A stretch of DNA of 64,000 nt. It comes from Halarcobacter sp. (lineage in GTDB: Bacteria; Campylobacterota; Campylobacteria; Campylobacterales; Arcobacteraceae). A program made the translations under genes and the position numbers. Location of the stretch: contig CP182352.1 in assembly GCA_048571215.1 (NCBI GenBank), positions 2,624,001-2,688,000 on the forward strand. Reading direction: 5' to 3'. The notes under the pieces are model-generated. The model had not been told where the DNA came from. It saw only the letters and a program-made list of their open reading frames with translations, and searched no databases. This document shows, in pieces, positions 44,549 through 63,403 of this stretch. Within the stretch, counting starts at the first letter, position 1; each line of letters begins with the position of its first letter.

Positions 44549-45094
44549 TTGCTAAGACTTGGTTCAAACTCTTCCACACGCGCAAAAATATTAAATGATA
44601 ACAATATAGAATTTATACAAAATGGAGGAGATTTTGATGAAGATAAAATCAAAACTAAAAATCCAAAATCATTTGTATATGAAGCAACTATAGGCAAATA
44701 TAATGAACTAATTAAAAAATATGGATGTGATGATATGCCCCTACTAGTAGCTGATTCAGTGGTAACAGCAAATAATCAACTTCTAAGAAAAGCAAAAGAT
44801 GAAGAAGATGCAAGAAAAATGCTAGAGCTTCAAAGTGGAAACAAAACCTCTGTTATAACTTGTATGATATACCATAGCAAAGAAAAAAAAGTTATCGATA
44901 TCTCAATCACAACATATAAATTTGAAGAGTTTGATAAAACGCATATGGAAAACTATATAAAATCAGGTGAATGTTTTGGAAAAGCAGGAGCAATTATGGT
45001 TGAGGGGTTTTGTAAGCCTTATATAAAAAGTGTTATAGGATATGAAAGTACTGCAATGGGACTTTGTGTTGAGAAGTTGAAGATTTATCTTTGA
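44549..45094 (+). CDS. maf: Maf family nucleoside triphosphate pyrophosphatase
   Basis: LGSNSSTR, VADSVV, GKAGA, MGL; AAGGA SD with TTG start. Confidence 0.93.
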   Translation: MLRLGSNSSTRAKILNDNNIEFIQNGGDFDEDKIKTKNPKSFVYEATIGKYNELIKKYGCDDMPLLVADSVVTANNQLLRKAKDEEDARKMLELQSGNKTSVITCMIYHSKEKKVIDISITTYKFEEFDKTHMENYIKSGECFGKAGAIMVEGFCKPYIKSVIGYESTAMGLCVEKLKIYL

Positions 45095-45456
45095 AAAATT
45101 AGAAATTTTCTAACAGAATAATTATAAAAAAAAAGTAAACCTGTTACTATGATTTTTGATACACCTACATCTATTTTCAATAAATCATGAAAACAGTATA
45201 ATAGGAATAGATTTAAAACTAGACTTGTAGCACTCACAATGTATATTAGAAAAATCTCATGATGTTTTTTAAACTTTTTACCACTTTCAAATACAAACTT
45301 TATACTCAAATAATAATTCACAAAAGTTGCAATAATAAAAGTAAAAAATCCTACTACTAAATAATTATATGATAAAAATTTTGCAAAAATAAAAAATAAA
45401 CCTACATCAACAACTGCTGCAGTCCCACCTACGAAAAAATATTTAATAATTTTCAA
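45085..45456 (-). CDS. GtrA family lipid-linked sugar flippase
   Basis: KYFFVGG.AAVVD, NYYLS.KFVF, YNY..RKFLIF; 4 TMs. Confidence 0.92.
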   Translation of the reverse strand: MKIIKYFFVGGTAAVVDVGLFFIFAKFLSYNYLVVGFFTFIIATFVNYYLSIKFVFESGKKFKKHHEIFLIYIVSATSLVLNLFLLYCFHDLLKIDVGVSKIIVTGLLFFYNYSVRKFLIFQR

Positions 45457-45534: not shown

Positions 45535-47021
45535 ATGGAGCACTTATTAAAAAAATTATTTCAAGTAACTTTTTACCTTACATTATCTTTTTTATATTAT
45601 CTTTTTTAATAATCATATCATTTGGCTATACTATGCATAGTGATGGTTGGCGCCATTTAGCTATGGCATTAAATAAAAATGAAATTGGCTCATGGGATAA
45701 AATTTTAATTCATTCTCTTTACAAGAATTATGACCCTTGGTTTATTTGGCATCAATTTTTAAAAATTATTATAATTTTATTTAATAAAGATAATGTACAT
45801 ATTGTTGTAAACCTTATTGTATATTTTTCACTATCTTCTTGGTATTTTTTAACTCTTAAACAATTTGCAAAAATCAATATCTATTTTATTATATTAATCT
45901 CAATTTTTACACCAATTCTAAATGAAAGATATTTTCAACTAAGACCCGATATTGTAATTGGATTACTTATGTTATATCTAATTATAAAAAAAAATATAAT
46001 CACTTATACTATAACAATACTCTTAGCTCCATTATACTATCTCTTTTGGTTCTTTTTAGGATACCTTGCCTTAATTAAAATAGTTTTAAAAGATTATAAA
46101 AGTTTCTTTTATATTTCCATATCTATATTTATTGGATTTTTAATATATTTTCTTTATGATTATGAACAGTATATATATATTTTAAAGCTTGTATTTAGTA
46201 ATGATCAATTAACTTCAAAATTTACGGTAAATGAAAGTTTACCTGTTTTTATACCCTTAGAATTAAAAAATTATATTGGCAGTGCTTCTTTACTCTTTAT
46301 ACTATTTTCAAGTTCAGTATTCTGCTTATATAAGTTAAAAATTAAAAACAAACTGCTTAAATATTTTATTCTCTTTCTACCTTTAATGCTCATTCAAAAT
46401 AGATTTTTTGATTTGCTTCAACCTCTTTTTATCACTGCTTCAATTATAATAAGTATAAAAATCAAAAATTATGTAGATTCATATGGAATAAAAAAACCAA
46501 TTAATCATATAAAAACTTTTATTGATGAGAAAACATATTTTAGTCTTATAAAGAAAAAACATTTCCCAATTTTATTATTTATATTTTTATTAGGCATTTT
46601 TATTTATATATTTATTTCATATAAAAATAAATATACTAATCAATATCAATATATCCTTTCACATAAATTTATTGCTGAAAAAGAATTCCACAATAAACGA
46701 ATTTTTATAAACAAAATGTATACTCTAATGGATGTCTCATTCTTATTTAATCCAACAGCACAATACCTTCCTAACTTTTCTTTAGGTTGGGTTGACTATA
46801 ATACACCAAACAAAAAAATCTATTTCAAAATATTAAGTAGTTATCAAAAAGTTTCACAAAAAGAACTTATTGGTTTTTTAAAACTAAATGAGATAGATTA
46901 TTTTATTATTGATACTAAATTTAAAACTAATTTAACCGTTTCTAATAAAGAAATGAAGCATAATGGTTATAAATTTTATAAAATAATTGATGATTATATA
47001 ATATTTAAGAGAGACAATTAA
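45535..47021 (+). CDS. Putative GT-C-fold membrane glycosyltransferase, paralog 1 (5' end ambiguous: frameshift at A7 or ATT start)
   Basis: Polytopic with [29 protein letters not shown] shared with 48424-49908; frame open from 45525 but first in-frame ATG is 45633. Confidence 0.65.
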
Positions 47022-47024
47022 AAA

Positions 47025-48443
47025 ATGAAGAAAAATGTGATTATTATCGGTGCTGGCCCTGCTGGCTTAACTGCTGCCTATGAATTGCTGAAAACAAAAA
47101 ATTATAATATAACAATTTTAGAAGACTCTGAATATATAGGTGGTATTTCAAAAACCTTTAATCATAATGGAAATCGCATTGATATTGGAGGACATAGATT
47201 TTTTAGTAAAATCAAAAAAGTCAATTCTTGGTGGGATGAAGTTTTAGATGAGAATTTTTTGATAAGAAATAGAAAATCAAGAATCCTTTATGAAAGAGAT
47301 TTTTATGATTATCCTGTAACTTTAAATAAAACAACCATTAAAAATTTAGGCTTAACTAGATTTATTAAAATTGGTTTTTCATATCTAAAAGCAGCTATTT
47401 TTAAAAGAGATGAAAAAACTTTAGAAGATTTTTTTATCAATAGATTTGGGTATGAACTTTATGCTACTTTTTTTAGAGATTATACTGAAAAAGTTTGGGG
47501 TGTTCCTTGTAATAAGATAGATGCACTATTTGGACATCAAAGGATAAAAGGCTTATCTATTAGTTCTGTATTACTACACATGTTAAAAAAATCTTTTGGT
47601 AGTTTAAACTCTAAAAATATAGAAACTTCTTTAATAGAAGAGTTTAAATACCCCAAATATGGTCCTGGTCAACTTTGGGAAAATGTTTCAAAAAAGATCG
47701 AAACTCTAGGTGGAAAGATAATATTTAATGAAAAAGTTGATACATTAAAAATCAAAAAAAACCATACAATAAAAATTAAAACCCAAAACAACTCTTATGA
47801 AGCTGATTTTATCTTCTCATCTATGCCAATCAAAGATTTAATAAACACAATTAAAAAAGCTCCGTCAGATATAAAAAACTTAGCAAATAATTTAGAATAT
47901 AGAGACTTTATAACAGTAGGTCTATTACTTAAAAACTCTAAATTAGATACTTTAAAAGACAATTGGATTTATATTCAAGAATCTGATGTAAAAATAGGAA
48001 GACTTCAAATATTTAATAATTGGTCTCCTTTTTTAGTAAAAGATAAAAATACAACTTGGATAGGATTGGAATACTTTTGTAATGAAAATGATGAACTTTG
48101 GAATATGAAAGAAGAAGAGTTTATCAACTTTGCAATTTCAGAATTAGAAAAATTAGATTTAATAAAAAAAGAGTCTGTAATTGATTCTATTCAATTGAAA
48201 GTAAAAAAAGCCTATCCTTCTTATTTTGGTTCATATGATAGATTTGATGAAATCAAAAAGTATTTAAATACTATAGAAAATCTATTTTGTATAGGAAGAA
48301 ATGGTCAACATAGATACAATAATATGGATCATTCTATGATGACAAGTTTTGAAGCAGTAAAAGCTTTAGAAACAAATAGTTCAAAACAGAACCTTTGGGA
48401 TATAAATACAGAAAAAGAGTACCATGAATCAACTTCTAAATAA
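47025..48443 (+). CDS. FAD-dependent oxidoreductase, UDP-galactopyranose-mutase-like
   Basis: [38 protein letters not shown]; mutase function is inferred. Confidence 0.8.
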
Positions 48444-49908
48444 TAAATATTTTAATATTTTAATATTCCCATTATTTTTTATTTTTGGTCAAGTAGTATC
48501 AAACTTGATGAATTATACCATGTTTGATGATGGATGGAGACATCTTGCTATGGCATTTTACAAAGATGAGATGGGTAGTTGGGGAGAACTTTTTATTCAC
48601 TCTTTATATAAAGATTATGATCCTTGGTTTATGTGGCATAATCTTTTAAATCTTTTATCAACCATATCATCAAATGATAAAGTGCATATCTTAATAAATG
48701 GTTTTGTTTATGCAGCCTTATCAAGCTGGTTTTATATTGTATTTAAAAAATATTCTAAATTTGATATTTATTTAACAATATTTTTATCGTTAATGCTACC
48801 TATTTTAAACTATCGATATTTTTATCTCAGACCTGATTTATTAAGTGGTTTATTTTTATTATATTTTATGTTAATTCAAAAAAGATACCTTATAGTTTTA
48901 GTTTCTTTAATCTATATGCCATTTTATTATGTATTTTGGTTCTATTTTGGATATTTAGGAATATTAAAACTATTTTTAAAGAAATATAAAGACTTAATAC
49001 TTTTGATTATTCTTTGTATTATTGGTTTTATTTTTCATCTCTCTTATGATTTTAATGGTTTTATTGATACCACAATGAACGTATTAAACAATGATACTCT
49101 ATTGCAAGGTCAATCTGTAGGTGAAAGTAATCCAACTTTTTTCCCTCTATCAATAAAAAACTATTTTGGAACTACAATTTTATTAGTGTTTTTTCTAATG
49201 CTATCTTATCTTTTTTATATTGTATTTAAACCTAAAGATAGATTATTAGAACTTCTGATTTTTTTCGCCCCATTGATTTTATTGCAAGCTAGATTTTACG
49301 CACTTTTATATCCCTTAATCTTAGCCTATGCAGCTATTTTGACTCATAGGTTTTGCAAACTTATCTATGAAAATAGTTTAAGTTATACTATAGATTTAAT
49401 TGTAAACTTTATAAAAAACAGATCATATCTTGGAAATATTCCCAAAAAATATTATAAAACAATTTTAATAATTCTAATCTCTTCAATTTTAATTTTTACA
49501 TTTACTGATAAAATTTTCTCATATAGAAAGTTTAGTAATGATGTAAAAGATTTAAACTTTATTGCTAAAGAAGAGTTTAAAAATAAAAGGATTCTATTTA
49601 CTACAATGAATATATCTTTATATATTAGTATATACAAAAATCCAACAGCAAAATATCTTCCTAGTTGTTCTTTAGGATGGGTTGATTACAAAGATAAAAA
49701 ACTTAAAAATACTTATTTTAATTTAATAACTAATTCAGATAAACTAAATAACCAAGATTTTTTTAAGTTTTTAAAGTATAATAAAATTGATGTAATAATT
49801 GTAGATAAAGATACAAATAATCTTAAGTTTAATAATGTAGAAATAAGCGATTTTGGTTATAAGTTTTATAAATTATATAAAAATAATATAATTTTTATAA
49901 AAAATTAA
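48424..49908 (+). CDS. Putative GT-C-fold membrane glycosyltransferase, paralog 2
   Basis: TM1 followed by acidic DDGWRHL loop, LRPD, about 11 TMs, soluble C-terminal domain. Confidence 0.7.
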
Positions 49909-49956: not shown

Positions 49957-50154
49957 ATGTTAGATTTCTTAAAAAGAAGATTAAAGTCAGAAAAAGGTGC
50001 TATGGATAAAATCCTTGTTACATTGTTATTAGTTGTTATTGGTGTTGGTCTAGTTGTTGGTCTACAATCGTGGGTTGGATCTCAAAAAAATGCTTTACAA
50101 AACTCAGCAAATAATGTTATAAACAGTGCTAAAAACAACGCAAATAATAGCTAA
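49957..50154 (+). CDS. Flp-like pilin 1 (probable major pilin)
   Basis: 65 aa; basic leader ending KSEKG, about 20-residue hydrophobic helix, amphipathic tail; strong SD; heads the tad cluster. Confidence 0.85.
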   Translation: MLDFLKRRLKSEKGAMDKILVTLLLVVIGVGLVVGLQSWVGSQKNALQNSANNVINSAKNNANNS

Positions 50155-50165
50155 TATTTTAGAAA

Positions 50166-50196
50166 ATAAGTAGATAAAAATATTTTATCTACTTAT
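50166..50196 (+). terminator. Hairpin between flp1 and flp2
   Basis: ATAAGTAGATAAAA-ata-TTTTATCTACTTAT perfect 14 bp stem. Confidence 0.65.
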
Positions 50197-50203
50197 ACTA
50201 ATA

Positions 50204-50398
50204 GTGAATATGAAACTTTATATAAAACTTAAATCACAAAAAGGTGCCATGGATAAAATCCTTGTTACTTTGTTACTTACTATTGTTGCTGTTGTTGCCA
50301 TAATTGGTATTGAACAATGGTCAAGTAGTAAAAAAGATGAGTTAAAAAATCAATCAAACAATACAATAACAAAAATAAAGAATGAAATAAATCAATAA
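50204..50398 (+). CDS. Flp-like pilin 2
   Basis: LKSQKGAMDKILVTLLL is nearly identical to flp1; start GTG 50204 or ATG 50210. Confidence 0.82.
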   Translation: MNMKLYIKLKSQKGAMDKILVTLLLTIVAVVAIIGIEQWSSSKKDELKNQSNNTITKIKNEINQ

Positions 50399-50830
50399 AT
50401 GATCTTTTCTATATCATTTTATATTTTTTCACTTTTCATTTCATATATTGATTGTAAAAAACGACTTATTCCAAATACTCTTTTGCTTACATTAACTTTT
50501 TTTTTGTTAATTTTTGGTTACTTAGAAAATAAGCTACATATCTATTCTTTTCTTGTATTATTATTAATTTTACTTTTTTTTGTTATAATAGTATTGATAG
50601 TCCCAAAGATGATTTTAGGTGGTGGAGATATAAAGTACTTTATGGTTGTAGCAATATATTTGCAACCTCTTTATTTCCCATTATTTTTACTATTTTGTGG
50701 TATATTTCAATTTATTTTATTGATATATTTTCAAAACATAAAAAAAAGGCGTACAGCTCCAATGGCACCAGCTATAATTTTTGCTGTATTTATAACTGAA
50801 ATAGTTAAAAGCTTAGAAATCTACCTTTAA
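50399..50830 (+). CDS. A24 prepilin peptidase (TadV/CpaA-like)
   Basis: YIDCKKRLIPN and GGGDIK catalytic aspartates; APMAPAI; no methylase domain. Confidence 0.92.
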   Translation: MIFSISFYIFSLFISYIDCKKRLIPNTLLLTLTFFLLIFGYLENKLHIYSFLVLLLILLFFVIIVLIVPKMILGGGDIKYFMVVAIYLQPLYFPLFLLFCGIFQFILLIYFQNIKKRRTAPMAPAIIFAVFITEIVKSLEIYL

Positions 50831-50850
50831 ATAGCTCCAAGGAGTCTCTT

Positions 50851-53235
50851 ATGAAAAAAGCAATGATAGAACAGATAATGATAGGTGGTATCCTCTTTAC
50901 CATGCTAACACTATTTGTTGCAACAGTATATGATGAAAAATCTGCAAGAGATAGAACTTATGAATTAAAAACAACAGCACAAGAAGTTTCAATAGGTCTT
51001 GCTAAATACTATGAAGATCAAATGGATATGTGTACAGCTGAAAGTATTGTAACAGAGATATTAAAAAAAACTACTACAGGTCAGTTTTTACTTGATAATA
51101 ATTTGATCTCATTTCAATGGAAAAACTTAAAACCAGATAGTGATGGTGATGGTGTAGGAGATGATGGTGAACCTGATACTATTGTAACTACAATTGCACA
51201 ACATGATTATGATACTTTTTGGTATAAACTTTTTGGTTTAAATAAATTTCAAATTGGTCCTTTTACTGAAACTAAAGAAGTTCAAACACCTAAAAATGTA
51301 AATATTACGTTTGGTGGGCAAAATGCTGGTTATACAAATATGATAGGTACTTATCAATTAGACCAAAACAATTGTGTTATAAATACTCAACTTATTTTAG
51401 CAAATTCAAAGGACAATAGTAAAGTTGGTTCAAAACTTGGGAGTACAATTCAATCACCACCAACTTTTATATTTATCATGCCAAATGGATACCAAGAATT
51501 TAAAGAAAAAGGTTATACTCCCAGTGAAACTGATGTAATTAATATATCAAATCATTGTTTTGGGGCAAACACACAACCTGACTTATCTATAGGTAACACA
51601 TCATTAGGAAGCAATGGTAGAATTTATTTTGAACAAACAGAACTTAATAGTGACAAGTATGAACATATTCAAATTATTCCTGATAGTATTTGGAAAACAT
51701 ATAATGACTATGTAAATGGACAAGGAGATTTTTCGGGACAAGGAACTAAATCGTATGATGATTTTATGAGTTATTGTGAACAGATAAATTCTGACAGTGA
51801 CCCAAGTAATGATATGAATTGTAAAGACGATCCAAATGATGAATACCAATATGCAATGGAAGATTTAGATGATGGTGGAGATGAAGATTTTAATGATATT
51901 TTCCTAAATACAACAAGAATAGCTATACCAAATAAACTTAATGATTTTGAAATAGATCCTCATAATGGGAATATATCATTAACATGTAATAATAATAATA
52001 ATAATAAACCAACTATATCTATTGAAAATTGTCCTGATTCAATAGATGAAGATACAAGTTTTACTATAAATTGGACAGCTTCTGATAGTGATGGAAATGT
52101 TATAACAACTGATGCTGCTGCTGATAATGGTTCTGTGGCAATTAATGGTACTGCAGAAAATGGAACAGTCGGATATACTCCAAATACTAACTATTTTGGT
52201 CAAGATACAATTACTATGCAAACAACTGATAATAGTGATAATAGTACATTTGCATATTGTACTTTTAATGTAATAGAAGTAAATGACCTTCCTACAATAT
52301 CTGGAACACCTATAACCACTGCAGATATTGGGAAAGTTTACTCATTTATTCCTACAGCATCAGATGTAGATGGAGATCCCCTAACATTTTCAATTGAAAA
52401 TAAACCACAATGGGCTTCATTTAACTCTGCAACAGGCCAATTAATTGGTACACCTTACGATTCAGATGCAGGTACATATTCTAGTATTGTGATTAGTGTA
52501 TCAGATGGAAGAGGTGGAACAGCATCTCTTGAACCATTTAATATTTTTGTACCACACTCTGATACAAACCCTAAACTTTTAAGTAATATTCCTGACCAAA
52601 GTGTAACAGAGAAAACTACATTTTCTTATAGTACAAGTCAACATTTTGAAGATCCTAATGGAGATATATTGACATACTCTATAGATCAGTCAGAATATGC
52701 AGGAAATATAAACTCAAATACAGGTTTAATAACTATCAATATACCTGATAATACAGCAGGAGATACAATAACATTAACAGTTAGAGCAACAGATCCAGGA
52801 GGATTAACTGTTGCTGATACATTTGTATTAACAGTTAGTGCTAATACAGAATGTACAATAGATGAAACTGATGACTTTAGTGATGATAATCACGCGTGGT
52901 CGGGTGGAAATAAAACACTTTTATATCACTATAAAATAGATAGAGATACTACTGCCTACAAAACATATGATTTTGGTTCTGGTTGTAAAAATACAAATGT
53001 GTCACTATCTTTTCAATATTATACACCATATTACTGGGAAAATGCTGATAAGTTAAAGTTATATATTAACGACTCATATTCTACAGAATATTCTAGATCA
53101 AATGGTAAATGGACATCAAAATCAATAAATCTACAAACAGATTCAAGCGGTAAACTAAAAGTCGGACTAATGCCTGATTCAAATAAAAATAATGAAATTG
53201 TATATATTGATAATATAAATATTAAAAATCAATAA
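50851..53235 (+). CDS. Large TadG-like pseudopilin/adhesin with Ig/cadherin-like repeats
   Basis: Pilin-like N-terminus; DSDGDG; EDLDDGGDEDFND; ASDSDGN, ASDVDGDPLTFS..KPQWASF..TGQL.GTP and FEDPNGDILTYS repeats; C-terminal beta domain ending YIDNINI. Confidence 0.78.
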   Translation: MKKAMIEQIMIGGILFTMLTLFVATVYDEKSARDRTYELKTTAQEVSIGLAKYYEDQMDMCTAESIVTEILKKTTTGQFLLDNNLISFQWKNLKPDSDGDGVGDDGEPDTIVTTIAQHDYDTFWYKLFGLNKFQIGPFTETKEVQTPKNVNITFGGQNAGYTNMIGTYQLDQNNCVINTQLILANSKDNSKVGSKLGSTIQSPPTFIFIMPNGYQEFKEKGYTPSETDVINISNHCFGANTQPDLSIGNTSLGSNGRIYFEQTELNSDKYEHIQIIPDSIWKTYNDYVNGQGDFSGQGTKSYDDFMSYCEQINSDSDPSNDMNCKDDPNDEYQYAMEDLDDGGDEDFNDIFLNTTRIAIPNKLNDFEIDPHNGNISLTCNNNNNNKPTISIENCPDSIDEDTSFTINWTASDSDGNVITTDAAADNGSVAINGTAENGTVGYTPNTNYFGQDTITMQTTDNSDNSTFAYCTFNVIEVNDLPTISGTPITTADIGKVYSFIPTASDVDGDPLTFSIENKPQWASFNSATGQLIGTPYDSDAGTYSSIVISVSDGRGGTASLEPFNIFVPHSDTNPKLLSNIPDQSVTEKTTFSYSTSQHFEDPNGDILTYSIDQSEYAGNINSNTGLITINIPDNTAGDTITLTVRATDPGGLTVADTFVLTVSANTECTIDETDDFSDDNHAWSGGNKTLLYHYKIDRDTTAYKTYDFGSGCKNTNVSLSFQYYTPYYWENADKLKLYINDSYSTEYSRSNGKWTSKSINLQTDSSGKLKVGLMPDSNKNNEIVYIDNINIKNQ

Positions 53236-53243
53236 ATATATCG

Positions 53244-53275
53244 CTAAAGAGATATAAAGATTTATATCTCTTTAG
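53244..53275 (+). terminator. Hairpin after the adhesin gene
   Basis: CTAAAGAGATATAAA-ga-TTTATATCTCTTTAG 15 bp inverted repeat; TATAAT follows at 53316-53321. Confidence 0.7.
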
Positions 53276-53355
53276 TTAATTAAAATCAATTAAATGTAAA
53301 TTTATTTTATTTTATTATAATATAAAATTAAGTTTGTACCCAAAGAAGGAACAAA

Positions 53356-54951
53356 ATGGATTATAAAACGTACCAAACATATACAGATATACAAGGTGCC
53401 TTAGATATTAGACGAGAAAATGTTATAGAAATATTAAACTTATTTGTACTTATTTCAAATATTGGTAAACTAACTTTTTTAAAATACGATTTTAAATTTA
53501 ATAACTTTGTGTATAACTTTACAATTGATGGACATAATACAATAGATGATGATATACATTTTATGAATAACAAGTTCTCTATTGTATTAAAAGAGGGTGA
53601 TATTATCTATGGTAAAATAACCTTCAACAAAAGAATCTGGTATAGGCAAGTTTTAAAAGAGTTATTAAAAAAAGCAAAAGTATCATTAAGAAATATTTTT
53701 GAGATTGAAAAAGATCTACTTTCACAAAACACCCCATTAAACATCTATATAATAACAGATAAAAATACAATCAAATTTGCAAATAAATTACAAACAAACC
53801 TTGATATTCTACTAAATGCAGAAATAAGTATTTTGCATGATATCACAAGAATTACAGAAAAACTAAATGCAAAAAATTCTAAAAATATTATAATCTATAC
53901 TATTCAAAATGCAGAATTAATAAATGATGATAAACAAATCATTGAAAACTTTAATGAGTTTGTAATAGTGATTGGTCCAAATGACCATAACCTTTCACTT
54001 ATGTGTGGACAACTAAATATACACAGTTATGTTTCAATTAGTGAATTCTCACCTGAACATGTCAAAAACCTTATTTTAGACACAAAATATAAACTTATTA
54101 ATAAAAATAAACAAGATAATAAAATTTTTGCAATAACTGGAATCTCTGGTGGTATTGGAACAACTACAGTGTCAATGAATACAGCAGATATAATTGCTAA
54201 AAACTCTCCAAATAAAAATGTTTTATATGTGGATTTGTCAACTACAAAAGCTATTAGTAATCTATTTTTATCACAAAATCCTGTACCAAACCATTCAATT
54301 ATAGACTTAGTTAATTTTGGAGATTTTAATATCCAGAAAAATCTTGATTTGGGATTAGTTAAGGTTAGAGAAAATTTTTATGCTATCAATGGAATACAAA
54401 AACATATTGATAGAGACCTCTTAGAAAAAGATACTTTTATAGAAAAACTTTTAGATTATCTAATAAAAGCTAGTGAACATTTTAATGTAATAATTATAGA
54501 TACTGGTGCTGCTGATGCCTCAGCTCTTAAAAGTACTATTTATGATTTGGTAAATGAAATCTGGATATTAACAGAAATGACCCTACCCCATGTATCAAAA
54601 CTAAAAACCTTTTATTCACTTATGAAAAGAGCTGGACTAAAAGATAAAGTTAGTTTTATAGTAAATAGAGTTAACTCTTTAAATGAAATCTCATCTTCAG
54701 ATTTTGATTCTATCATGAATACAAGTGCAAAAGATGAAAAACTTGTATATTTAAAGATACCAAATGATTATGAAACCCTAGGAAAATGTTGGAATTACTG
54801 TGAATTGGCAAATCAAGTTTCTAGTACTTCACCTTTTGTTAAAACCATTGAAGAGATAATCTTGCAAAAAGATTTGATTGGGGATAAGATTGAAAAAACA
54901 AAAGTAAAAAAAAGTTTATTTTCATTTTTAGCAAATAAGGACAAAAGTTGA
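53356..54951 (+). CDS. TadZ/CpaE-like localisation protein (MinD/ParA fold)
   Basis: AITGISGGIGTTT..N.A, VLYVDL, IIIDTG, IVNR, IPND; immediately before tadA. Confidence 0.85.
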   Translation: MDYKTYQTYTDIQGALDIRRENVIEILNLFVLISNIGKLTFLKYDFKFNNFVYNFTIDGHNTIDDDIHFMNNKFSIVLKEGDIIYGKITFNKRIWYRQVLKELLKKAKVSLRNIFEIEKDLLSQNTPLNIYIITDKNTIKFANKLQTNLDILLNAEISILHDITRITEKLNAKNSKNIIIYTIQNAELINDDKQIIENFNEFVIVIGPNDHNLSLMCGQLNIHSYVSISEFSPEHVKNLILDTKYKLINKNKQDNKIFAITGISGGIGTTTVSMNTADIIAKNSPNKNVLYVDLSTTKAISNLFLSQNPVPNHSIIDLVNFGDFNIQKNLDLGLVKVRENFYAINGIQKHIDRDLLEKDTFIEKLLDYLIKASEHFNVIIIDTGAADASALKSTIYDLVNEIWILTEMTLPHVSKLKTFYSLMKRAGLKDKVSFIVNRVNSLNEISSSDFDSIMNTSAKDEKLVYLKIPNDYETLGKCWNYCELANQVSSTSPFVKTIEEIILQKDLIGDKIEKTKVKKSLFSFLANKDKS

Positions 54952-56549
54952 GAAACTTAAGAAATCTAATAGCCGAAGAGGAACAGAAAAAAGAGATAAA
55001 AAAACAATCTTTTAGTGTGGAAAAAGCTCAAGAAGATGAGTCTTCAAATGATTTAGCCCCTATAAAAAAGATAGAACAGTTAAAACTAAAAAGTAGACAT
55101 ACAGGTCTAAAGTTTCCAGAAATATATTTGAATAAGAAACTTTTAGATTTAGCTTATGAGATAAACGACACTTTTATGTTAAATCTAAAATCTGATAAGA
55201 AAATCACCAGAGAATCTTTAGAAGAGGTTTTACCAGAGTTTATTTTATCATTTAAGCCAGCCAAAAACCTATCTAAAGAGTACTTAGATGATATAAAAGA
55301 GTTTATTATAAACAATGTTATTGGATATGGTCCAATTACAGCCTTATTTGATATTGCAAAAGATGGGTTGAATGATGTTATTGTAAATACAAGAGAATAT
55401 ATTGATATTATATATCAAGGTAAAACAATTGAGACTCCATTTACCTTTAGAAGTGAGGATGAATTAAGAAAAGTAATTGATAAGATGCTTGCTGAAAATA
55501 ATAGGAAAATTGATGAAGCACACCCTATTATGTCAAGTAAATTAAAAGATGGTTCCAGAGTAGAGGTTCAAATACCACCTATTGCAGCTAATGATGGAAG
55601 CTGTGTAACCATAAGAAAGTTCAACGATTTACCATTGTTATTGGAGTTTTTAATAGATTCTGGTCAAATGGATTACAAAATGGCATATTTCTTATTAAAA
55701 GTTGCAAAAGGAAAATGTAATATTATCGTTTCTGGTGGTACTTCAAGTGGTAAAACTACATTTTTAAATGCCATGACTAGGTTTATTGATGAAAATGAAC
55801 AACTAATGGTTATAGAAGATACAAAAGAGATGCAACCTCAAATGCCATGTCACTCTATTAGACAATATGAAGCTAGAATGGCAAATGAAGAGGGAAAAGG
55901 TGCTATTACCTTAGACTTTTTATTACGTTCAGCACTTAGATCATCTCCAAGAAGAATTGTAGTTGGTGAGTGTAGAGGTGGGGAAATAGTTGTTATGCTT
56001 AATGCCATGAATACAGGACATCCAGGTTCAATGACTACAGTGCATGCCGATAATACAAAAGAAGCCTTAGTAAGAATTGAAAATATGTATCTAGAAGCTA
56101 GACCAACAGCTAATATCAACTTTATTAGAGCTCAAGTTGTATCTGCTATTGATATAATTATACAACTAGTAAGATTTCCTGATGGTTCAAGAAAACTAAT
56201 CACTATCTCAGAAGTTGAAAAAAGAATAGAAGACAATGCTGTAATATCTTTAAATAATATCTTTGAATTTAAAAGAGATACTAGTGATATGACAAAAACT
56301 AGAGGAAGTTTTGAGATTGTATCAACTCCTACTAGAACAGTGACTCAAATGAATATGTTTGGTGTAGATATAGATATGGGAATTTTTAATAAAGAGTTTG
56401 AGATGCCAAAATCTATGTTGATTGAAGAGTTAGAAAAAGATTTACCAACTAAAATGTGTGGTTGGAGACCTGATTATATGGATATTTTTCTAGAAAAAGA
56501 TCCTCAACTATTCCATAAATGGCCACATTTCCAAAAAGTAGAGAATTAA
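54948..56549 (+). CDS. tadA: TadA/CpaF pilus assembly ATPase
   Basis: GYGPI, LKDGSRV, TIRKF, SGGTSSGKTTFLN, IEDTKE, PRRIVVGECRGGE, MNTGHPGSMTTVHA. Confidence 0.95.
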   Translation: MRNLRNLIAEEEQKKEIKKQSFSVEKAQEDESSNDLAPIKKIEQLKLKSRHTGLKFPEIYLNKKLLDLAYEINDTFMLNLKSDKKITRESLEEVLPEFILSFKPAKNLSKEYLDDIKEFIINNVIGYGPITALFDIAKDGLNDVIVNTREYIDIIYQGKTIETPFTFRSEDELRKVIDKMLAENNRKIDEAHPIMSSKLKDGSRVEVQIPPIAANDGSCVTIRKFNDLPLLLEFLIDSGQMDYKMAYFLLKVAKGKCNIIVSGGTSSGKTTFLNAMTRFIDENEQLMVIEDTKEMQPQMPCHSIRQYEARMANEEGKGAITLDFLLRSALRSSPRRIVVGECRGGEIVVMLNAMNTGHPGSMTTVHADNTKEALVRIENMYLEARPTANINFIRAQVVSAIDIIIQLVRFPDGSRKLITISEVEKRIEDNAVISLNNIFEFKRDTSDMTKTRGSFEIVSTPTRTVTQMNMFGVDIDMGIFNKEFEMPKSMLIEELEKDLPTKMCGWRPDYMDIFLEKDPQLFHKWPHFQKVEN

Positions 56550-56552
56550 AAT

Positions 56553-57482
56553 ATGGATAATACTATCATAATACTAATATTTGCAATCCCTATATTAACT
56601 ATTTTAGTTATAGTTTTAGGGTATAAATATTATTATGAACTTGATAGAAGAAGTAAAATTATAACTTTACTAAAAAAAGATAATAATGAGATATTAGATG
56701 AAAAAAAAAGAAAAAGATTTACAAAAAAAGAGCGAAATTGGCTTGGAAAAAAACTTGCATATGCAGGTTTTCCCCATCCTATCGCAGAGATAATTTATAT
56801 TCTAACCTCGATTATTTTTGGATTCTTAGCTGCAACTTTTATAAACTTTGTAATTCCGAATCCTATAGTGTTTGCTTTAAGCTTTTTAGCTTTTTGTTTT
56901 TTCCCTTTACTTGTGTTAAAAAAAATTATAGATGGTAGGCAAGAAGATTTTAACTTTGGATTAAAAGTTATCATTGATAAAGTAACTAGTATGATGAAAA
57001 GTGGTGTAGGTTTTGAACAAGCTTTAAAAAAAGCAGTTGCTACATCAAGGTCTAAACTTGCTAAAGAGACTTTTGAAATATATTTAAATGAAAAAGATAT
57101 TATAGGTGAAGATAAAGCATTTCAAAAGATGTTTACAGTTGTAGAATCAAGGGAACTTAGAATTTTTTACCTAACAATTTCTATTGGTAGGCAATCTGGT
57201 GGTAAGTTTTCAAATACTTTAGATAAACTAAGAAAAGCTTTACATGCCCAAGGGGAAATAAAACAAGAGATAACTGCCTCAACAAAAGAGGTAAAGGTAG
57301 GAAGTTATATGATTATAGGTTTAGTTATATTTATCTATAAGATGTTAAATAGTTCTTTAGATGGAGTTTTAGATGAACACTTTTTTGGCACAAGTGAAGG
57401 GCAGATACAAATGTTTTTTATAATTTGTTGGGTTACCTTTGGGGTGTTTGTAAATAGTATGTTATCAAAAATAAAGGCATAA
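56553..57482 (+). CDS. tadB: TadB inner-membrane platform protein
   Basis: L..AG after TM1, MKSGVGFEQAL, QSGGKFSNTLDKL; T2SSF-like; follows tadA. Confidence 0.85.
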   Translation: MDNTIIILIFAIPILTILVIVLGYKYYYELDRRSKIITLLKKDNNEILDEKKRKRFTKKERNWLGKKLAYAGFPHPIAEIIYILTSIIFGFLAATFINFVIPNPIVFALSFLAFCFFPLLVLKKIIDGRQEDFNFGLKVIIDKVTSMMKSGVGFEQALKKAVATSRSKLAKETFEIYLNEKDIIGEDKAFQKMFTVVESRELRIFYLTISIGRQSGGKFSNTLDKLRKALHAQGEIKQEITASTKEVKVGSYMIIGLVIFIYKMLNSSLDGVLDEHFFGTSEGQIQMFFIICWVTFGVFVNSMLSKIKA

Positions 57483-57483
57483 A

Positions 57484-58326
57484 ATGAGTCCAATATTTTT
57501 CCTTCCAATTTTAATTGTAATTATAGGTATAATACTTTGGTATTTTTATGATACAAGAGGGACTAAAAAGAAAATCATTTTACTTTCAAAACTTGATGCC
57601 CTTGCAATTATTGACCAACAAAAAAATGTAAAAAGTAAAAAAGAGACTGAACAGAGTACTGATTTAAATCTACAGCTAATACAAGCTGGTCTTACAAAAA
57701 AAGAGTACAACGAAGGCAAGCTGGTATTTGCTTTAATAGGAATTATAATTGGAGTTTCTTTTCCTGTATTTTTTTCTACAAAAATTGGGATAATTGGTGT
57801 TGTTGTAGGGCTTATAGCAATAATATTTGGTGGGAAAATGTATCTTTCAATCTCTAAAACTGAAAGAACCGAAAAAATCAATAATGATTTAGGTGTATTT
57901 TTAGATTTGATTAATGTTATTTTAGAAGCTGGTGGCGGTTTAAAAAATGCTTTTTTTACTGTATCCACAAGAGCTCATAATATTTTAGACGAAGAGTTAT
58001 TAAAAGAAGTAGCTATTTTAGAGTATGAGATGACAAACTACTCAACAAAAAAAGCCTATGAAAACTTAAAAAAAAGAGTTGATTCAGATGATGTTTCAAA
58101 AATAGTTGATTTTTTAATTTTAAGTGAAGAAGCTGGTATTGGTGTAAAAAATATCTTTTCAACTCAAAGTGATGAGATGAGACAAGAAAAATTTTATAAA
58201 ATTAAAGGTAAAGTTAATACACTTAATATGTATTTAATGTTAGTAATATTTATCTTTGTAATTCCTGCATTAGGAGCATTTATTGTTTTTCCAATGCTTG
58301 CAGGAAAATTAGATTTTGGCATGTAA
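57484..58326 (+). CDS. tadC: TadC inner-membrane platform protein
   Basis: LIQAG, FLDLINVILEAG, SEEAG.....F..QSDEMR, FIFVIP. Confidence 0.87.
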   Translation: MSPIFFLPILIVIIGIILWYFYDTRGTKKKIILLSKLDALAIIDQQKNVKSKKETEQSTDLNLQLIQAGLTKKEYNEGKLVFALIGIIIGVSFPVFFSTKIGIIGVVVGLIAIIFGGKMYLSISKTERTEKINNDLGVFLDLINVILEAGGGLKNAFFTVSTRAHNILDEELLKEVAILEYEMTNYSTKKAYENLKKRVDSDDVSKIVDFLILSEEAGIGVKNIFSTQSDEMRQEKFYKIKGKVNTLNMYLMLVIFIFVIPALGAFIVFPMLAGKLDFGM

Positions 58327-58335
58327 AGGAATAAT

Positions 58336-59499
58336 ATGAAGTTCGATAAACAGTTAGCTATAATTTTAGTTTTAATATCACTACTATTGTCAGCAATAGG
58401 TATCTCTATATATTTTTATAATAAAAATGAGCAAACAAAAAAAGAGAATAATCAATTAGTTAAAATATATGTAGCTAAAAATAATATTAAACAAAATACT
58501 CTTATAAAAGATAAAGATATAAAAGAAACAACAGTAGCTAAACAGTATGTATTGACAAAACCTTTACTAAAACAAGAGATTATAAATAAATATGCAATAG
58601 AAAATATCTATGCAAATGAGCAATTTTTAAAAGAAAAACTTTCAGTAACACCTCAAATAAAAAGACAATTAAGTAAAATATTAGACTATAACTACTCAAG
58701 TTACAATATGTCTTTTAAATTATTTAAAAATCCAAACTATTCTATACAACCAAATGATGTAATAAAAATTATTTCAGTATATCCTATGGATTCAGAAAAA
58801 AATAACTATAAAGTTAGATATGTAGCAAAAAATATTAAAGTCTTAGGTTTCTTAAGTGATGGGAAAGAGATAGAAAAAGCAATATACAAAAAAAAGGTAA
58901 AGAGGTTTGAAAAAAAACAACAAATTGAAGAGATTGTAGATATAAAATCAGATGAAATGATTTTAGATATTAAAGAGGATGTATTATTATCTTTGATTAG
59001 TGACTTCAACAAAGGTAACCAACTTTGGATGGTTAAATCAAAAATGGAAAATGATACAAAAGATGTTAAAAAAGTAACTAAAATTGATAAATCAAAACTA
59101 AATAAAACAAAAGTTAATAAAAGTTATAAACCTAAAAAAGTATATTACCCTATAACTTGGTATAAACCAGCTACTACTTATGAAACAAAAACAGCTATGA
59201 TTACTTATGCAAATGACTCTAAGAAAACTGATATCAAAAAAGCAAAAGTTGCATCTGATTACCAAAAAGAGTGTAGTGAAACTAATAAGTTATTATTAGT
59301 AAAATCTAGAACTGTTTACCTAAGAGAAGCTCCATCAATAAGAGCAAAGATTGATAAAAAAATTGCTAAGAACTATATCTTACCTTATGTATCAATTTCT
59401 AAAATAAACCCAAATTGGTATATGATATGTGATGAGACTTATGTACAAAGAAAAGATGTAGAAGTTATAACATATGATGATTATAAAAGGTTAAAATAA
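58336..59499 (+). CDS. RcpC/CpaB-like protein with SAF domain and C-terminal SH3b-like domain
   Basis: N-terminal TM; YVAKNNIKQNTLIKDKDI (SAF), IQPNDVIKII, NIKVL; VYLREAPS....W...YV. Confidence 0.75.
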   Translation: MKFDKQLAIILVLISLLLSAIGISIYFYNKNEQTKKENNQLVKIYVAKNNIKQNTLIKDKDIKETTVAKQYVLTKPLLKQEIINKYAIENIYANEQFLKEKLSVTPQIKRQLSKILDYNYSSYNMSFKLFKNPNYSIQPNDVIKIISVYPMDSEKNNYKVRYVAKNIKVLGFLSDGKEIEKAIYKKKVKRFEKKQQIEEIVDIKSDEMILDIKEDVLLSLISDFNKGNQLWMVKSKMENDTKDVKKVTKIDKSKLNKTKVNKSYKPKKVYYPITWYKPATTYETKTAMITYANDSKKTDIKKAKVASDYQKECSETNKLLLVKSRTVYLREAPSIRAKIDKKIAKNYILPYVSISKINPNWYMICDETYVQRKDVEVITYDDYKRLK

Positions 59500-59502
59500 A
59501 AT

Positions 59503-59931
59503 ATGGAAAAAAAACAGATGAAAAAAGCAGCCATAGAAAATATTCTAATATGGATGGTACTGTTTACAAGTTTTGCTACTTTCTTTTTTTTTATAATTAA
59601 CTATGCAACCATATTAAGAGTACAGGATAATATGATTGCTATATCAGATTATGGAGCAAATTATGTTGCAGCAAATGGAATAGGTGATAATATATCTACA
59701 GATCTAAACAGAATAAAAGTAGATGGTATAAATACTATAAGTAGTGCAGATACTGGAGTTATTTGTAATGAAGTTTCAAATGTACCTTTAAACTTTACAG
59801 TAATATTCAAAACAGAAACAACAAATACTTCATATAAGTTTTATGGAGACAGTTTATCGGCAACTAAAGCAGTATTCAACCAACAAAGTGGTAATACAAT
59901 AACATGTACACTAAAAATAACCTTGAAGTAG
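59503..59931 (+). CDS. TadE-like pseudopilin
   Basis: KKAAIENILIW + hydrophobic helix, then ISDYGANYVA resembling AAREGAR; two Cys. Confidence 0.7.
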   Translation: MEKKQMKKAAIENILIWMVLFTSFATFFFFIINYATILRVQDNMIAISDYGANYVAANGIGDNISTDLNRIKVDGINTISSADTGVICNEVSNVPLNFTVIFKTETTNTSYKFYGDSLSATKAVFNQQSGNTITCTLKITLK

Positions 59932-59940
59932 GAGAGAGTA

Positions 59941-61596
59941 ATGAGATTTTTTAAACTGAAGTTAATTTTTTTATTTTTATCATTTATTACATTAAATGCT
60001 TATGATATTAATGATAAGGTAATTTACCAAAAAGATTTTGAAAATAAAACAATTTATTTACCATTAAATAACTATAGAACGTTAATATTTGAAGATAGAA
60101 TTAAAAGTATTCAATTAACAAATAGTGAAAATATAACAGCTGAGTTTGTAGATAATAAAATCAGACCTCTGCAAATGTTAAAAATTCTAGGTAAAAATAT
60201 TGGAAGTGAAAGTGCAGTAGTAATCTTAGAAAATGATAAACTAATACAAATAAACTTTAGTATCATGAAAAATTTAGACAATATTATCACCATAGTTAAA
60301 AATACTTACCCTAATTTAATTGTAGAACAAGCAAATGATACTTTAGTATTAAAAGGATATGTTAAAGATTATAAAGAAAAAGATTTAGTAATAGAGATAT
60401 TCAAAAAAGCTGGTGTTGATATAGAAAAAAATTTAGTTAATATGATTGAAACCTCTAGTCCATCAAAAATGATAAAAATTAAAATGTATGCAGTTGAAAT
60501 AAATAATGATAATGGTATAGATTTAAAGAATAATTGGACATTATCAAGCAAAAATTATATGAAAGTTAACGGAGATAATGGATATGTAAACTATCCATCA
60601 AGTTCTTATGGTAGGCCATATATAGAAAGAGATGTTTATTATGATGATGTAGTCAGTATGAGTGATCCAAACTATAATCCTGATTTAACAGGTACAATTA
60701 TACGAAAAGAGATAGAATTTTTAGTTGATAATCAGAAGAATTATCAAAATGTAAATAACCAAAGGAATGAAGGTCTTGATGATGCTTTACAAAATATCAT
60801 CTCTAGTGCAGTTACATTAACAGGAGGATTGACAGGAGTTGCTAACTATTTAGGTAAAAACTTTAATGCAGGCTTAATGCTAAACTATCTTTCAACGGAA
60901 GGAGTTGCAAATGTACTAGATGAGACTACATTGTTAACTTTAGAGAATAAAAATGCCACTTTTCACGCAGGTGGTACTATTATGATTAAAACCCAAACAA
61001 CATCAGCTGAAGGACTCCCTAACTCTACTATTGAACCTATTGATTATGGTTTACAATTAGATTTCAAAGCAAAAAATATAATGAAAAACGAATATATTGA
61101 TTTAGAGATAGATACCAAGTCTACACAAATAGATTGGACAAATCAAGTTGATGGAATACCAAGTTTTCTTGAAAAGAAAATAAAAACAAATGTATTAGCA
61201 CAAAATGGGCATACTATTGTAATTGGTGGACTAGTAAATAATGAAAATTCAAATGACATAAGTAAGATTCCTCTTTTAGGTGATATTCCTATATTAGGAT
61301 TTTTATTTAAAAGTAAATCGTTTAAAGAAGGGAAAAGTGAACTTGTATTTTTTGTAACTCCTGAAATAGTAAGTCCAGAAAATAATAATCAAGAAGAGTT
61401 ATTAAAAAAGACTTCAAAAAAGATTTTAGATACTTCAAGATACAAAAAAAGTCTATTATTTGATAATGATGAAGATAAAAAAAGTGAAAAAAAGAAAAAA
61501 GAAAAAGTCTTGCCAGAAACTACGCCTAATACTGACACTTCAACAACAAAACCTCTAAATCACAAAGAGATTGTAGATAAAATTTATGGTAGATAA
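59941..61596 (+). CDS. RcpA/CpaC secretin
   Basis: Signal peptide, Pil_N-like (ILGKNIGSE), BON-like (LVLKGYV), GHTIVIGGLV, KIPLLGDIPILGFLFKS, ELVFFVTPEIV. Confidence 0.93.
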   Translation: MRFFKLKLIFLFLSFITLNAYDINDKVIYQKDFENKTIYLPLNNYRTLIFEDRIKSIQLTNSENITAEFVDNKIRPLQMLKILGKNIGSESAVVILENDKLIQINFSIMKNLDNIITIVKNTYPNLIVEQANDTLVLKGYVKDYKEKDLVIEIFKKAGVDIEKNLVNMIETSSPSKMIKIKMYAVEINNDNGIDLKNNWTLSSKNYMKVNGDNGYVNYPSSSYGRPYIERDVYYDDVVSMSDPNYNPDLTGTIIRKEIEFLVDNQKNYQNVNNQRNEGLDDALQNIISSAVTLTGGLTGVANYLGKNFNAGLMLNYLSTEGVANVLDETTLLTLENKNATFHAGGTIMIKTQTTSAEGLPNSTIEPIDYGLQLDFKAKNIMKNEYIDLEIDTKSTQIDWTNQVDGIPSFLEKKIKTNVLAQNGHTIVIGGLVNNENSNDISKIPLLGDIPILGFLFKSKSFKEGKSELVFFVTPEIVSPENNNQEELLKKTSKKILDTSRYKKSLLFDNDEDKKSEKKKKEKVLPETTPNTDTSTTKPLNHKEIVDKIYGR

Positions 61597-61615
61597 AATC
61601 TTAGATTTTATCTAC
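61589..61615. terminator. Palindrome across the convergent secretin/dxs stop codons
   Basis: GTAGATAAAATCT-t-AGATTTTATCTAC. Confidence 0.55.
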
Positions 61616-63403
61616 TAATTGTTTAGGTAAAATACCTAAACTCTCCTCAACTAATTTTGTCTCACCATGTTGAATAAAGTCATCTTCATACTCAAAAGAG
61701 ATAAGATTTACATTAGATATATTTTTTGAATTTAAAAACTCTAATATAGCACTTCCAACTCCACCTTGCTTTTGAGAATCTGAAAAAATATACCACTTAT
61801 CATATTTTTTAGAAAGTTCTAAAAGTAATTTTTCATCTAGAGGTTTTACAAATCTTAAGTCAAGTACTGTTATATCTTCATCATGAAGCTTTTGGGTTTC
61901 TATAGCTCTACTAACCCCTGCTCCATACCCTATAAATAGCTTATTTGATGAACCTTCTCTTAATATTTCACTTTTACCCAACTCAAATGGTTTAGCTTCA
62001 TATTCTAGTTCTGCAAAAGCTCCTCTTGGATATCTTATTGCACAAGGAGAACTTGCATGATATGCAAACTCTAGTACATCTTGTAAAGTTTTGTTATCTC
62101 TTGGAGCACAAAGAATCATATTTGGTATAAATCTTAAATATGAGATATCAAAAGCCCCTTGATGTGTTTCTCCATCATTTCCAACTATTCCAGCTCTATC
62201 AATAGCAAATACAACTGGCATGTTCATCAAACAAACATCATGAATAATTTGATCAAAGCCCCTTTGTAAAAAGGTTGAATAGATTGTAATAAAAGGTTTA
62301 AATCCCTCTTTTGCCATAGCAGCCATCGAAGTTACTGCATGCTGTTCAGCTATTGCAACATCCCAAAATCTTGTAGGAAACTCTGCCATTAGCTTATCGA
62401 TCCCTGTTCCACTTGGCATAGCAGCAGTAACTCCAACTACATTATCATATTTTCTTGCAAGTTCAAGCAAAGCATCAGCAAATATAGAAGTAGCTGATTT
62501 TTTAGATGATTTTTTTTCAAATTCTCCATCATCAACATTAAATGGTCCAACCCCATGCCAATGTTCATGTTGACCTTCAGCTATCTTGTACCCTTTACCT
62601 TTAACCGTATGGGCATGGACGATTACTGGTTTTTTCATCCTTTTTGCCATCTCTAAAGTATCAATTATCTCTTCTAAATCGTGTCCATCAATTGGACCAA
62701 TATAATCTATACCCATCTCTTCAAAAATAATTCCAGGGGTGATAAGCTTCATACTCTCTTCAATTTTTTTAGCTATATATGTTGCACCCTCTGGAAGATG
62801 TTGAATTATATTTTTATCAACTCGTTCTTTAAAACTTTGATAAAATTTACCAGCTAATATTTTACTTAAATATTTAGATATAGCTCCAATAGGTTTTGCT
62901 ATAGACATCTCATTATCATTTAATACTATAACCATTGGGTATTTTCTATCACCTAACTCATTTAAAGCTTCATAAACCATCCCAGCAGTCATAGAACCAT
63001 CACCAATCATTACAACAGGAACTCTATCTTCCCCCTTAAGTTTAATAGCCTTAGCTGCGCCCACAGCAAGTGAAATAGAGGTTGAGCTATGTCCAGCTAC
63101 AAAATAATCAGCATCTGATTCTTTTGGTTTAGTAAACCCACTAAGCCCACCAAATTGTCTAATAGTTTCAAACTTATCCCATCTATCGTTTATAAGCTTA
63201 TGTGGATAACATTGGTGTGATACATCATATATAAAGGGATCTTTACTAACATCAAATACTTTATGCATAGCAACTGTTAATTCAACTGCTCCTAAAGTAG
63301 ATGAAAAGTGCCCACCTTTTCTTGAAACTACATCAATTATACGATCTCTAATATCTGAGCAAACTTGTTCTAATTCTTTTAAACTTTTAGTTTTTATTTC
63401 CAT
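61601..63403 (-). CDS. dxs: 1-deoxy-D-xylulose-5-phosphate synthase
   Basis: GGHFSSTLG, DVSHQ.YPHK, GHSSTS, GDGSMTAG..EALN, AIAEQHA, DGETHQG. Confidence 0.98.
   Translation of the reverse strand: MEIKTKSLKELEQVCSDIRDRIIDVVSRKGGHFSSTLGAVELTVAMHKVFDVSKDPFIYDVSHQCYPHKLINDRWDKFETIRQFGGLSGFTKPKESDADYFVAGHSSTSISLAVGAAKAIKLKGEDRVPVVMIGDGSMTAGMVYEALNELGDRKYPMVIVLNDNEMSIAKPIGAISKYLSKILAGKFYQSFKERVDKNIIQHLPEGATYIAKKIEESMKLITPGIIFEEMGIDYIGPIDGHDLEEIIDTLEMAKRMKKPVIVHAHTVKGKGYKIAEGQHEHWHGVGPFNVDDGEFEKKSSKKSATSIFADALLELARKYDNVVGVTAAMPSGTGIDKLMAEFPTRFWDVAIAEQHAVTSMAAMAKEGFKPFITIYSTFLQRGFDQIIHDVCLMNMPVVFAIDRAGIVGNDGETHQGAFDISYLRFIPNMILCAPRDNKTLQDVLEFAYHASSPCAIRYPRGAFAELEYEAKPFELGKSEILREGSSNKLFIGYGAGVSRAIETQKLHDEDITVLDLRFVKPLDEKLLLELSKKYDKWYIFSDSQKQGGVGSAILEFLNSKNISNVNLISFEYEDDFIQHGETKLVEESLGILPKQLVDKI

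Follow-up and report, generated by a model that had tools for sequence, protein, structure and literature searches.

A predicted Tad-type pilus built from non-Flp pilins in Halarcobacter and related Campylobacterales

We analysed a stretch of 64,000 nucleotides from Halarcobacter sp. (GCA_048571215.1, contig CP182352.1, positions 2,624,001 to 2,688,000), hereafter called the window, which contains a locus for a predicted Tad-type (type IVc) pilus. The window sits on a complete, single-contig genome. The locus spans 49957-61596 and consists, as a preliminary description of this DNA had stated, of eleven intact and co-oriented open reading frames (ORFs). All are on the + strand and without internal stops, and their lengths are 65, 64, 143, 794, 531, 533, 309, 280, 387, 142 and 551 amino acids (aa). 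That description also placed the host in the Campylobacterota. Relatives with a 91% identical TadA are records labelled Halarcobacter or Arcobacter, and the assignment to Arcobacteraceae therefore stands.

The first gene encodes a putative major pilin of 65 aa (51 mature; 49957..50154), with a Flp-like leader ending in KG and the mature start AMDKILV. A terminator-like hairpin of 14 bp is located 3' of it (50166..50196, + strand, z -4.0), followed by a second pilin of 64 aa (50 mature; 50204..50398) with the same non-canonical start, likely a minor or adapter pilin. Next are a TadV-type short prepilin peptidase (50399..50830), carrying Asp18 and Asp77 and no methylase domain, and a TadG-like tip pilin of 794 aa (50851..53235) with a pilin domain, a DUF4114/LecB-like domain and Ig repeats. 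A perfect hairpin, likely a terminator, lies between this pilin block and the assembly block (53244..53275, + strand, z -5.7). The assembly block contains a TadZ-like ParA/MinD protein (53356..54951), whose Walker A is degenerate and whose N-terminal 250 aa match no family, the TadA/CpaF motor ATPase (54948..56549), the platform proteins TadB (56553..57482) and TadC (57484..58326), RcpC/CpaB with a SAF domain and an extra C-terminal domain with a weak SH3-like match (58336..59499; E 0.064), a TadE-like minor pilin (59503..59931) and, in the RcpA position, a secretin (59941..61596). The TadE-like protein starts KA/AIENIL, where the slash marks the predicted cut, with an acid at +3, and has three invariant positions including two Cys. 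A last hairpin, likely a two-way terminator (61587..61617, z -6.5), separates the secretin gene from the next gene, which is convergent with it. A promoter scan was uninformative, with 30 sites against 30.8 expected.

Pfam matches above the cut-off were obtained for Peptidase_A24 (46 bits), T2SSE (150), T2SSF (34 and 33) and Secretin (147). RcpC and TadZ were matched below it (CpaB TIGR03177, E 4.5e-7, and ParA/MinD-like, E 5e-6, respectively). For the TadE-like ORF and the two small ones no family match exceeded the cut-off, and the labels flp1, flp2 and tadE were based on size, a single N-terminal hydrophobic helix and position.

To judge by its sequence, the motor is of the TadA/CpaF type and not VirB11, PilB or GspE. 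Its best solved relative is CpaF (235 bits), followed by FlaI (110), VirB11-like proteins (92) and PilT/PilB (at most 36), and all catalytic motifs are intact (Walker A 263, Asp box 289, Walker B 337, His box 357). In a tree made with IQ-TREE from 60 sequences and 353 columns, it is found with UFBoot 100 on the Tad side of the split from TrbB/VirB11-like ATPases; the other side of this split consists of a Vibrio TrbB and five weak family matches, which were assumed, with no annotation of their own, to be VirB11/TrbB-like. The tree leaves out two GspE-type paralogues, seven rows of close Campylobacterales and three quarters of the unnamed representatives. The Tad-type machine with a TadA motor proposed in the preliminary description thus holds, and the clustering with VirB11, PilB or GspE that it named as counter-evidence was not seen.

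The platform, peptidase, TadZ and RcpC components also agree with a Tad machine. There are two adjacent platform genes, each with a single T2SSF domain, and the short A24 peptidase has its two Asp and no methylase domain. TadZ (ParA/MinD-like) and RcpC (SAF) are under the cut-off in the window and over it in the homologues of a related locus, L106 (AAA_31 36 bits, SAF 39 bits). The RcpA-type N-domain PF13629 is over the cut-off in the L106 homologue only; the window secretin has a clear Secretin domain. On sequence grounds the set of motor, platform, alignment and secretin components is complete, and the short peptidase is present. The locus shares with the Tad/Cpa pilus of Caulobacter, Aggregatibacter and Pseudomonas (T4cP) the TadA/CpaF motor, split TadB/TadC, TadZ, RcpC, a short TadV, the secretin, a tiny all-helical pilin and the organisation in a single locus. 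It differs from it in having no GXXXXEY or GXXXXEF motif, in the acid at +3 (none in the sister families), in the position of rcpC-tadE-secretin after tadC, in its long-branched TadA and in having no TadD, RcpB or TadF gene among the eleven ORFs. The 250-aa N-terminal region of TadZ (window 53356-54100) is absent from the 397-aa TadZ of another family, f7.

The window TadA belongs to a clade of its own, clade A (UFBoot 100, stem 0.99), whose sister group is weakly supported (UFBoot 55 and 32). In a first tree the clade was placed near the base beside another long branch, which was not repeated in a second tree. The nearest TadA proteins among 1.84 billion representatives are two single-domain matches at 63-68% identity, and the others are at about 45% or less. 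A survey of Arcobacteraceae, as the preliminary description had advised, found a TadA 67-91% identical to that of the window in 60 of 184 genomes and 13 of 22 genera. In a wider sample, 17 of 401 genomes have a TadA match, four in the same family, five in family f7 (55-58% identity) and eight in families f2 and f3 (about 41%). The clade A pilin is found in five Campylobacterales families (20 of the 401 genomes). The earlier suggestion of a lineage-specific system is supported.

The Tad loci of f2 and f3 (L111-L118) represent a second Campylobacterales type. They have the Tad machine in common with the window, but with the canonical gene order and a canonical G/VTAIEY pilin (Flp_Fap 52 bits), and their TadA groups with that of a Serratia plasmid as its sister (UFBoot 100). 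By sequence, the f2/f3 Tad is a separate acquisition.

The core order tadZ-A-B-C-rcpC-secretin is present in 55 of 72 loci, a set that may include a few duplicates, and each of the remaining 17 has a truncated part of it in unchanged order. Among 47 loci with tadV, tadZ and secretin, 32 share the order of the window, with one or two pilin genes, and in the sister families the pilin gene is placed after the secretin. The preliminary description was right that the secretin comes last, but the rearrangement it stressed is not noteworthy, as this is the fixed order of the lineage and local permutations of tad genes are known (10.1101/576694). In one locus (L119:11544-14865, G005) tadB and tadC are separated by a 460-aa ORF, and the tadC product has a short length of 243 aa. 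The GC content of the locus, 25-29% in 2-kb bins, is within the 22-34% range of the window. An origin from a plasmid or island by recent transfer was considered and rejected, with an ordinary GC content and best plasmid matches that are only 35-43% identical. The pattern fits a chromosomal locus that has been resident for long, with many losses, rather than a recent island.

Flp pilins are defined by the motif G/XXXXEY (PMC10934763, PMC3244431). According to PMC10710030, conservation of Glu5 is absolute among the type IV pili of bacteria, and Tyr6 is conserved throughout the tad pili. The two small pilins of the window start KG/AMDKILV and have neither. Among 63 pilins from loci selected by their TadA, none has Glu5 or a Flp string, and 50 have the acid at +3; the other 13 are eight uncharged pilins of sister families, three ORFs with a later start and two with a different residue at -2. 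In a profile search, G-A-M-D is present in 120 of 120 homologues and Glu within mature +1..+20 in none of them, among the matches listed out of 877; one of the 120 contains a GxxxxE[YF] string within the first 45 residues. The sister-type pilins, of which several records are named Sulfurimonas, have no D/E at +1..+20 in any of the 117 (of 120) that could be anchored. No Flp_Fap match over the cut-off was obtained for any of 22 pilins, while the positive control, L112, does match Flp_Fap.

The acid at +3 recurs in the other pilins of the system. It is present in 45 of 53 TadE-like and 37 of 49 TadG-like proteins, and the N-terminal helices of these two groups align together (E 1.6e-4). The TadE/TadF pseudopilin motif G/XXXXEF is found in none of the 53 TadE-like proteins, and the window TadE-like protein has no Pfam match. 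The predicted cut leaves mature proteins of 51 and 50 residues without a globular domain, as expected for Flp. Nevertheless, by the motif tests for Flp and TadE these are not Flp pilins, and the naming of the small genes as flp1 and flp2 in the preliminary description has to be given up. We also considered a different cut, with the Asp at +5, and rejected it. Such a cut calls for Lys at +1 and for a residue other than G or A at -1, and the four-residue leader of the TadG-like protein makes it impossible there.

Flp-like pilins of Gram-positive tad loci also have no Tyr6, but they keep E/D at +5 (PMC3244431), where the pilins described here have I, L or V, and some tad loci have no recognisable prepilin (PMC3244431). 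In Caulobacter pili Glu5 faces the surface and makes no salt bridge like that of type IVa pili (PMC10710030), which makes loss of this residue plausible in structural terms. Archaeal type IV pilins (Iho670, Epd-like) have no Glu5 either, and their hydrophobic N-terminal helix aligns weakly with the window pilin, which differs from them in having no globular domain and in its company of a CpaF-type motor, a secretin and RcpC.

The small pilins are the only subunit candidates, because no canonical Flp is found anywhere else in the complete genome, they co-occur with TadA, and a hairpin follows the first pilin gene. The pilin family is present in 62 of 184 genomes; it is found in 58 of the 60 TadA-positive ones, and 58 of the 62 carriers have TadA. 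Genome-wide, the only pilins with D/E at +3 are the four of the Tad locus, and the canonical Glu5 pilins belong to an operon like that of a type II secretion system (T2SS) and to scattered genes. The hairpin 3' of the first pilin gene recurs in six of seven relatives tested and would raise the mRNA of this gene over those downstream. Nine of 47 complete loci carry two pilin copies in the arrangement of the window, and the tails of the pilins vary and have a high content of S, T and N. From these sequences, the small pilins would be cut and polymerised.

A few pilin genes are located outside complete loci. An orphan pilin starting KG/AIENIL lies between maf and dxs in two relatives (L157:4503-4697, L158:4560-4754); in the window this site holds the whole Tad locus, and the genomes of L157 and L158 carry the rest of the locus elsewhere. 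A separate cassette of a small pilin, a TadE-like and a 660-aa TadG-like gene (L161:1416-4056) is a possible second tip set. Four genomes (G085, G059, G135, G158) have a family pilin but no TadA of clade A; in these the pilin is likely what is left of a lost locus.

The TadG-like protein has a pilin domain at about 5-145, a DUF4114/LecB-like domain at about 145-360 with an acidic loop at 336-349, and then Ig-type repeats (Big_9/He_PIG/cadherin-like) with a weak MAM-like end. A structure model of residues 5-380 was obtained with a pLDDT of 87. Its first 140 residues weakly match type IV pilins (PilJ, Z 5.1), and residues 141-355 match LecB 1gzt (Z 5.1, 101 of 114 aligned, root-mean-square deviation 3.7) and thrombocorticin (Z 4.2). 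DUF4114 proteins top the structure searches of Atlas and BFVD, and eight of ten Atlas rows carry this domain. The top VIA rows, SPT16 and inositol phosphatases (Z 6-7), were rejected, as they cover the pilin part only and look like a common arrangement.

In Myxococcus PilY1.1, DUF4114 is a pilus-tip module that depends on calcium and probably binds sugars (PMC9109919), a calcium link and proposed sugar binding for which PMC13190605 is a further source. PilY1.1, the Kil Tad tips and LecB/PA-IIL resemble the window protein in the swappable pilus-tip domain and the acidic calcium-type loop, but in the window the domain is joined directly to the helix of a TadG-like pilin, with Ig repeats after it, and there is no beta-propeller. 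Another type of TadG-like protein has only the pilin domain in common with that of the window, and family f7 has a tiny pilin and a separate gene of 550-590 aa and no family in its place. According to sequence comparison and the model, the tip pilin carries a swappable DUF4114/LecB-like domain and the tip is modular. The adhesin of the preliminary description is indeed TadG-like, but it is a predicted tip pilin, and its lectin-like domain had been overlooked. The TadG-like gene is not within the fetched locus in L073, L092 and L122, and it is inverted after the secretin in L074 and L084.

Upstream of the pilin genes is a linked cassette, not part of the core, which the preliminary description had overlooked. 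The gene next to the first pilin encodes a membrane protein of 494 aa with a GT-C fold, a candidate pilin glycosyltransferase (48424..49908, +). It is preceded by a FAD oxidoreductase of the PRK07208 family (47025..48443, +; 708 bits, cut-off 418), a second GT-C copy, 39% identical, whose open frame extends upstream of the first ATG (45633..47021, +), and a GtrA-type lipid-sugar translocase on the opposite strand (45085..45456, -; 66 bits). The 494-aa protein has no Pfam or PDB sequence match. Its model has 18 PDB matches at E<=0.001, all of them oligosaccharyltransferases (OSTs) or DPY19, in agreement with a GT-C fold; the closest are STT3/PglB/AglB and DPY19 (Foldseek E 4e-6 to 1e-3, TM about 0.45-0.5). 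With these it shares the fold and an acidic pair in the first loop, which is near-invariant, and it is shorter than they are. The GT-C gene is accompanied by gtrA and the FAD oxidoreductase or a GT2. It is present in 28 of 184 genomes, 27 of which are TadA-positive, and at most about 2 kb from the pilin gene in 23 of the 28, although kin genomes are not independent in these counts.

The bacterial N-glycosylation sequon is D/E-x-N-x-S/T. In sister-type pilins it is present at one fixed position in 48 of 117 and at any position in 51, with 6.6 expected from shuffling. In the family of the window it is found in 9 of 30 pilins from loci without an adjacent GT-C gene (2.1 expected) and in none of 21 from loci with one (1.6 expected). 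This small and phylogenetically clumped count agrees with a switch from PglB to a local enzyme. The linkage suggests, with less certainty, that the GT-C cassette glycosylates the pilin. The STT3/PglB-like gene of this genome appears as two overlapping ORFs of 189 and 563 aa (G000:C1:3390109-3392264, -), through either a real break or an assembly error.

Taken together, the sequences and models very probably describe a Tad-type pilus for adhesion that belongs to a lineage specific to Campylobacterales and is made of non-Flp pilins. By analogy with known Tad biology, TadV would cut after the G or A preceding the hydrophobic helix, the TadE-like and TadG-like pilins would prime the tip, and TadA, acting on TadB/TadC with TadZ, would polymerise and retract the small pilin through RcpC and the secretin. 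Less surely, the filament may pack by contacts between hydrophobic helices, as archaeal pilins without Glu5 do, the tip may bind sugars with calcium while the Ig repeats would hold it outward, and the neighbouring GT-C cassette may glycosylate the pilin. The net function would be attachment to glycan-covered surfaces and biofilm formation.

Several observations weigh against this interpretation. The TadA family is the best NCBIfam match of the motor, though at 218-224 bits on TIGR03819 it is under the cut-off of 373, and canonical TadA proteins reach 320-349. No TadD, RcpB or TadF is found among the eleven ORFs, a genome-wide search not having been made; tadD and rcpB are accessory in the published Tad model. 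The homologue counts from the profile search lean to the motif of the profile, the locus-picked set less so, and the position of the predicted cut, KG/A, is read from the sequence. For the tip, neither the LecB match nor that of thrombocorticin reaches a Z of about 8, the level regarded as distinctive by the tool, and a plain Foldseek search of the model against PDB gave no match at E<=0.001. DUF4114 is matched at 21.5 bits in the window, under the cut-off of 27 (29.9 in the homologue P0275), and the acidic loop is present in 11 of 50 TadG-like proteins from related loci. Finally, the GT-C cassette is away from the Tad locus in two genomes (G032, G175) and occurs without Tad in a third (G011).

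The locus might instead encode a short endopilus only, for secretion or display of the large Ig-repeat tip protein or other cargo, and not a long adhesive fibre. The pilins do not have Tyr6, a residue said to set the register of Tad pili (PMC10710030), the tip protein is large and modular, and there is no pilotin among the locus ORFs, all of which would suit an endopilus. However, a hairpin that sets the first pilin gene apart in six of seven relatives suits a highly expressed major subunit, the variable S/T/N-rich tails are as in a surface-exposed protein, and a separate T2SS-like operon in this genome encodes canonical Glu5 pseudopilins. We regard an endopilus as unlikely.

It is more improbable still that the system is a relic of a transfer of Tad from archaea to bacteria, a basal branch that kept archaeal-type pilins without Glu5. 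The best PDB match of the pilin profile is the core of archaeal Iho670 (E 4.5e-4), an Atlas cluster, Class_IIIsignal, at 0.87 gives a lead only, and clade A has a long stem with nothing between 63-68% and about 45% identity among the 1.84 billion representatives. Yet the Iho670 match spans 24 hydrophobic residues and the leader peptide is Flp-like; clade A TadA reaches 169-171 bits with the FlaI model, less than the 188-228 bits of eight canonical TadA proteins, and the low UFBoot values for its sister group come from trees that contain no archaeal sequences. That the pilin profile does not match Caulobacter PilA is meaningless here, as a canonical Flp control missed PilA too. Archaeal ancestry is not supported, and a secondary loss of the Flp motif on a fast branch is likelier than a primitive state.

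A pilus for DNA uptake or contact-dependent interaction is very improbable, with no DNA-uptake, effector or type III secretion-like gene in the 11-gene locus and a tip domain that resembles sugar-binding modules, even if Tad pili do both elsewhere (PMC4322843, PMC8513845, PMC12075869).

A far-reaching reading would make clade A a very old separate Tad branch in which the Flp motif was never present or was lost at the root, and which would show the first bacterial Tad filament. It would combine archaeal-style pilins, a TadV with another recognition rule, N-glycosylation by PglB at a fixed Asn in the sister families, an OST-like enzyme in marine Arcobacteraceae and exchangeable LecB-like tips. 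We regard this reading as unlikely. A milder one, with derived loss of the motif and a functional, glycosylated and lectin-tipped pilus, can be put forward tentatively.

The system was described earlier as possibly undescribed, which is true in part. No experimental work on Campylobacterota Tad pili was found in the literature searched, most subscription journals being outside it. The presence of Tad is already in print, in a TXSScan table that scores it in two Arcobacter, three Sulfurimonas and one Sulfurospirillum genomes (PMC10470745). Its columns, inferred from a flattened version, are headed rcpA, tadZ, tadV, tadC, tadB and tadA, with none for the pilin. With TXSScan, the same paper also identified a TAD pilus cluster in an epibiont of the genus Sulfurospirillum. 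In the readable part of the PMC6668835 supplements Arcobacter, Sulfurimonas and Sulfurospirillum were not found; the large spreadsheet s022 and several figure files may list them. We did not find the GT-C link, the lectin-like tip or the non-canonical start of the pilins in the literature searched.

Five Campylobacterales families thus have a conserved Tad-type system whose only candidate pilins are without Glu5 or Tyr6, residues stated to be universal for bacterial and tad pili, respectively (PMC10710030). This offers, in cultivable environmental bacteria, a natural test of the roles of Glu5 and Tyr6 in processing and filament register. Because of the non-Flp start, annotation based on Flp leaves such pilins as hypothetical proteins. 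The predicted lectin tip would make the pilus a candidate attachment organelle for early surface colonisers of marine and of sulfidic habitats.

Elsewhere in the genome (G000:C1), the T2SS-like operon is located at 1884496-1894245, a second ATPase of the PilB/ComGA type with a platform gene at 407422-410908, and a PilD-type peptidase at 3518003-3518791.

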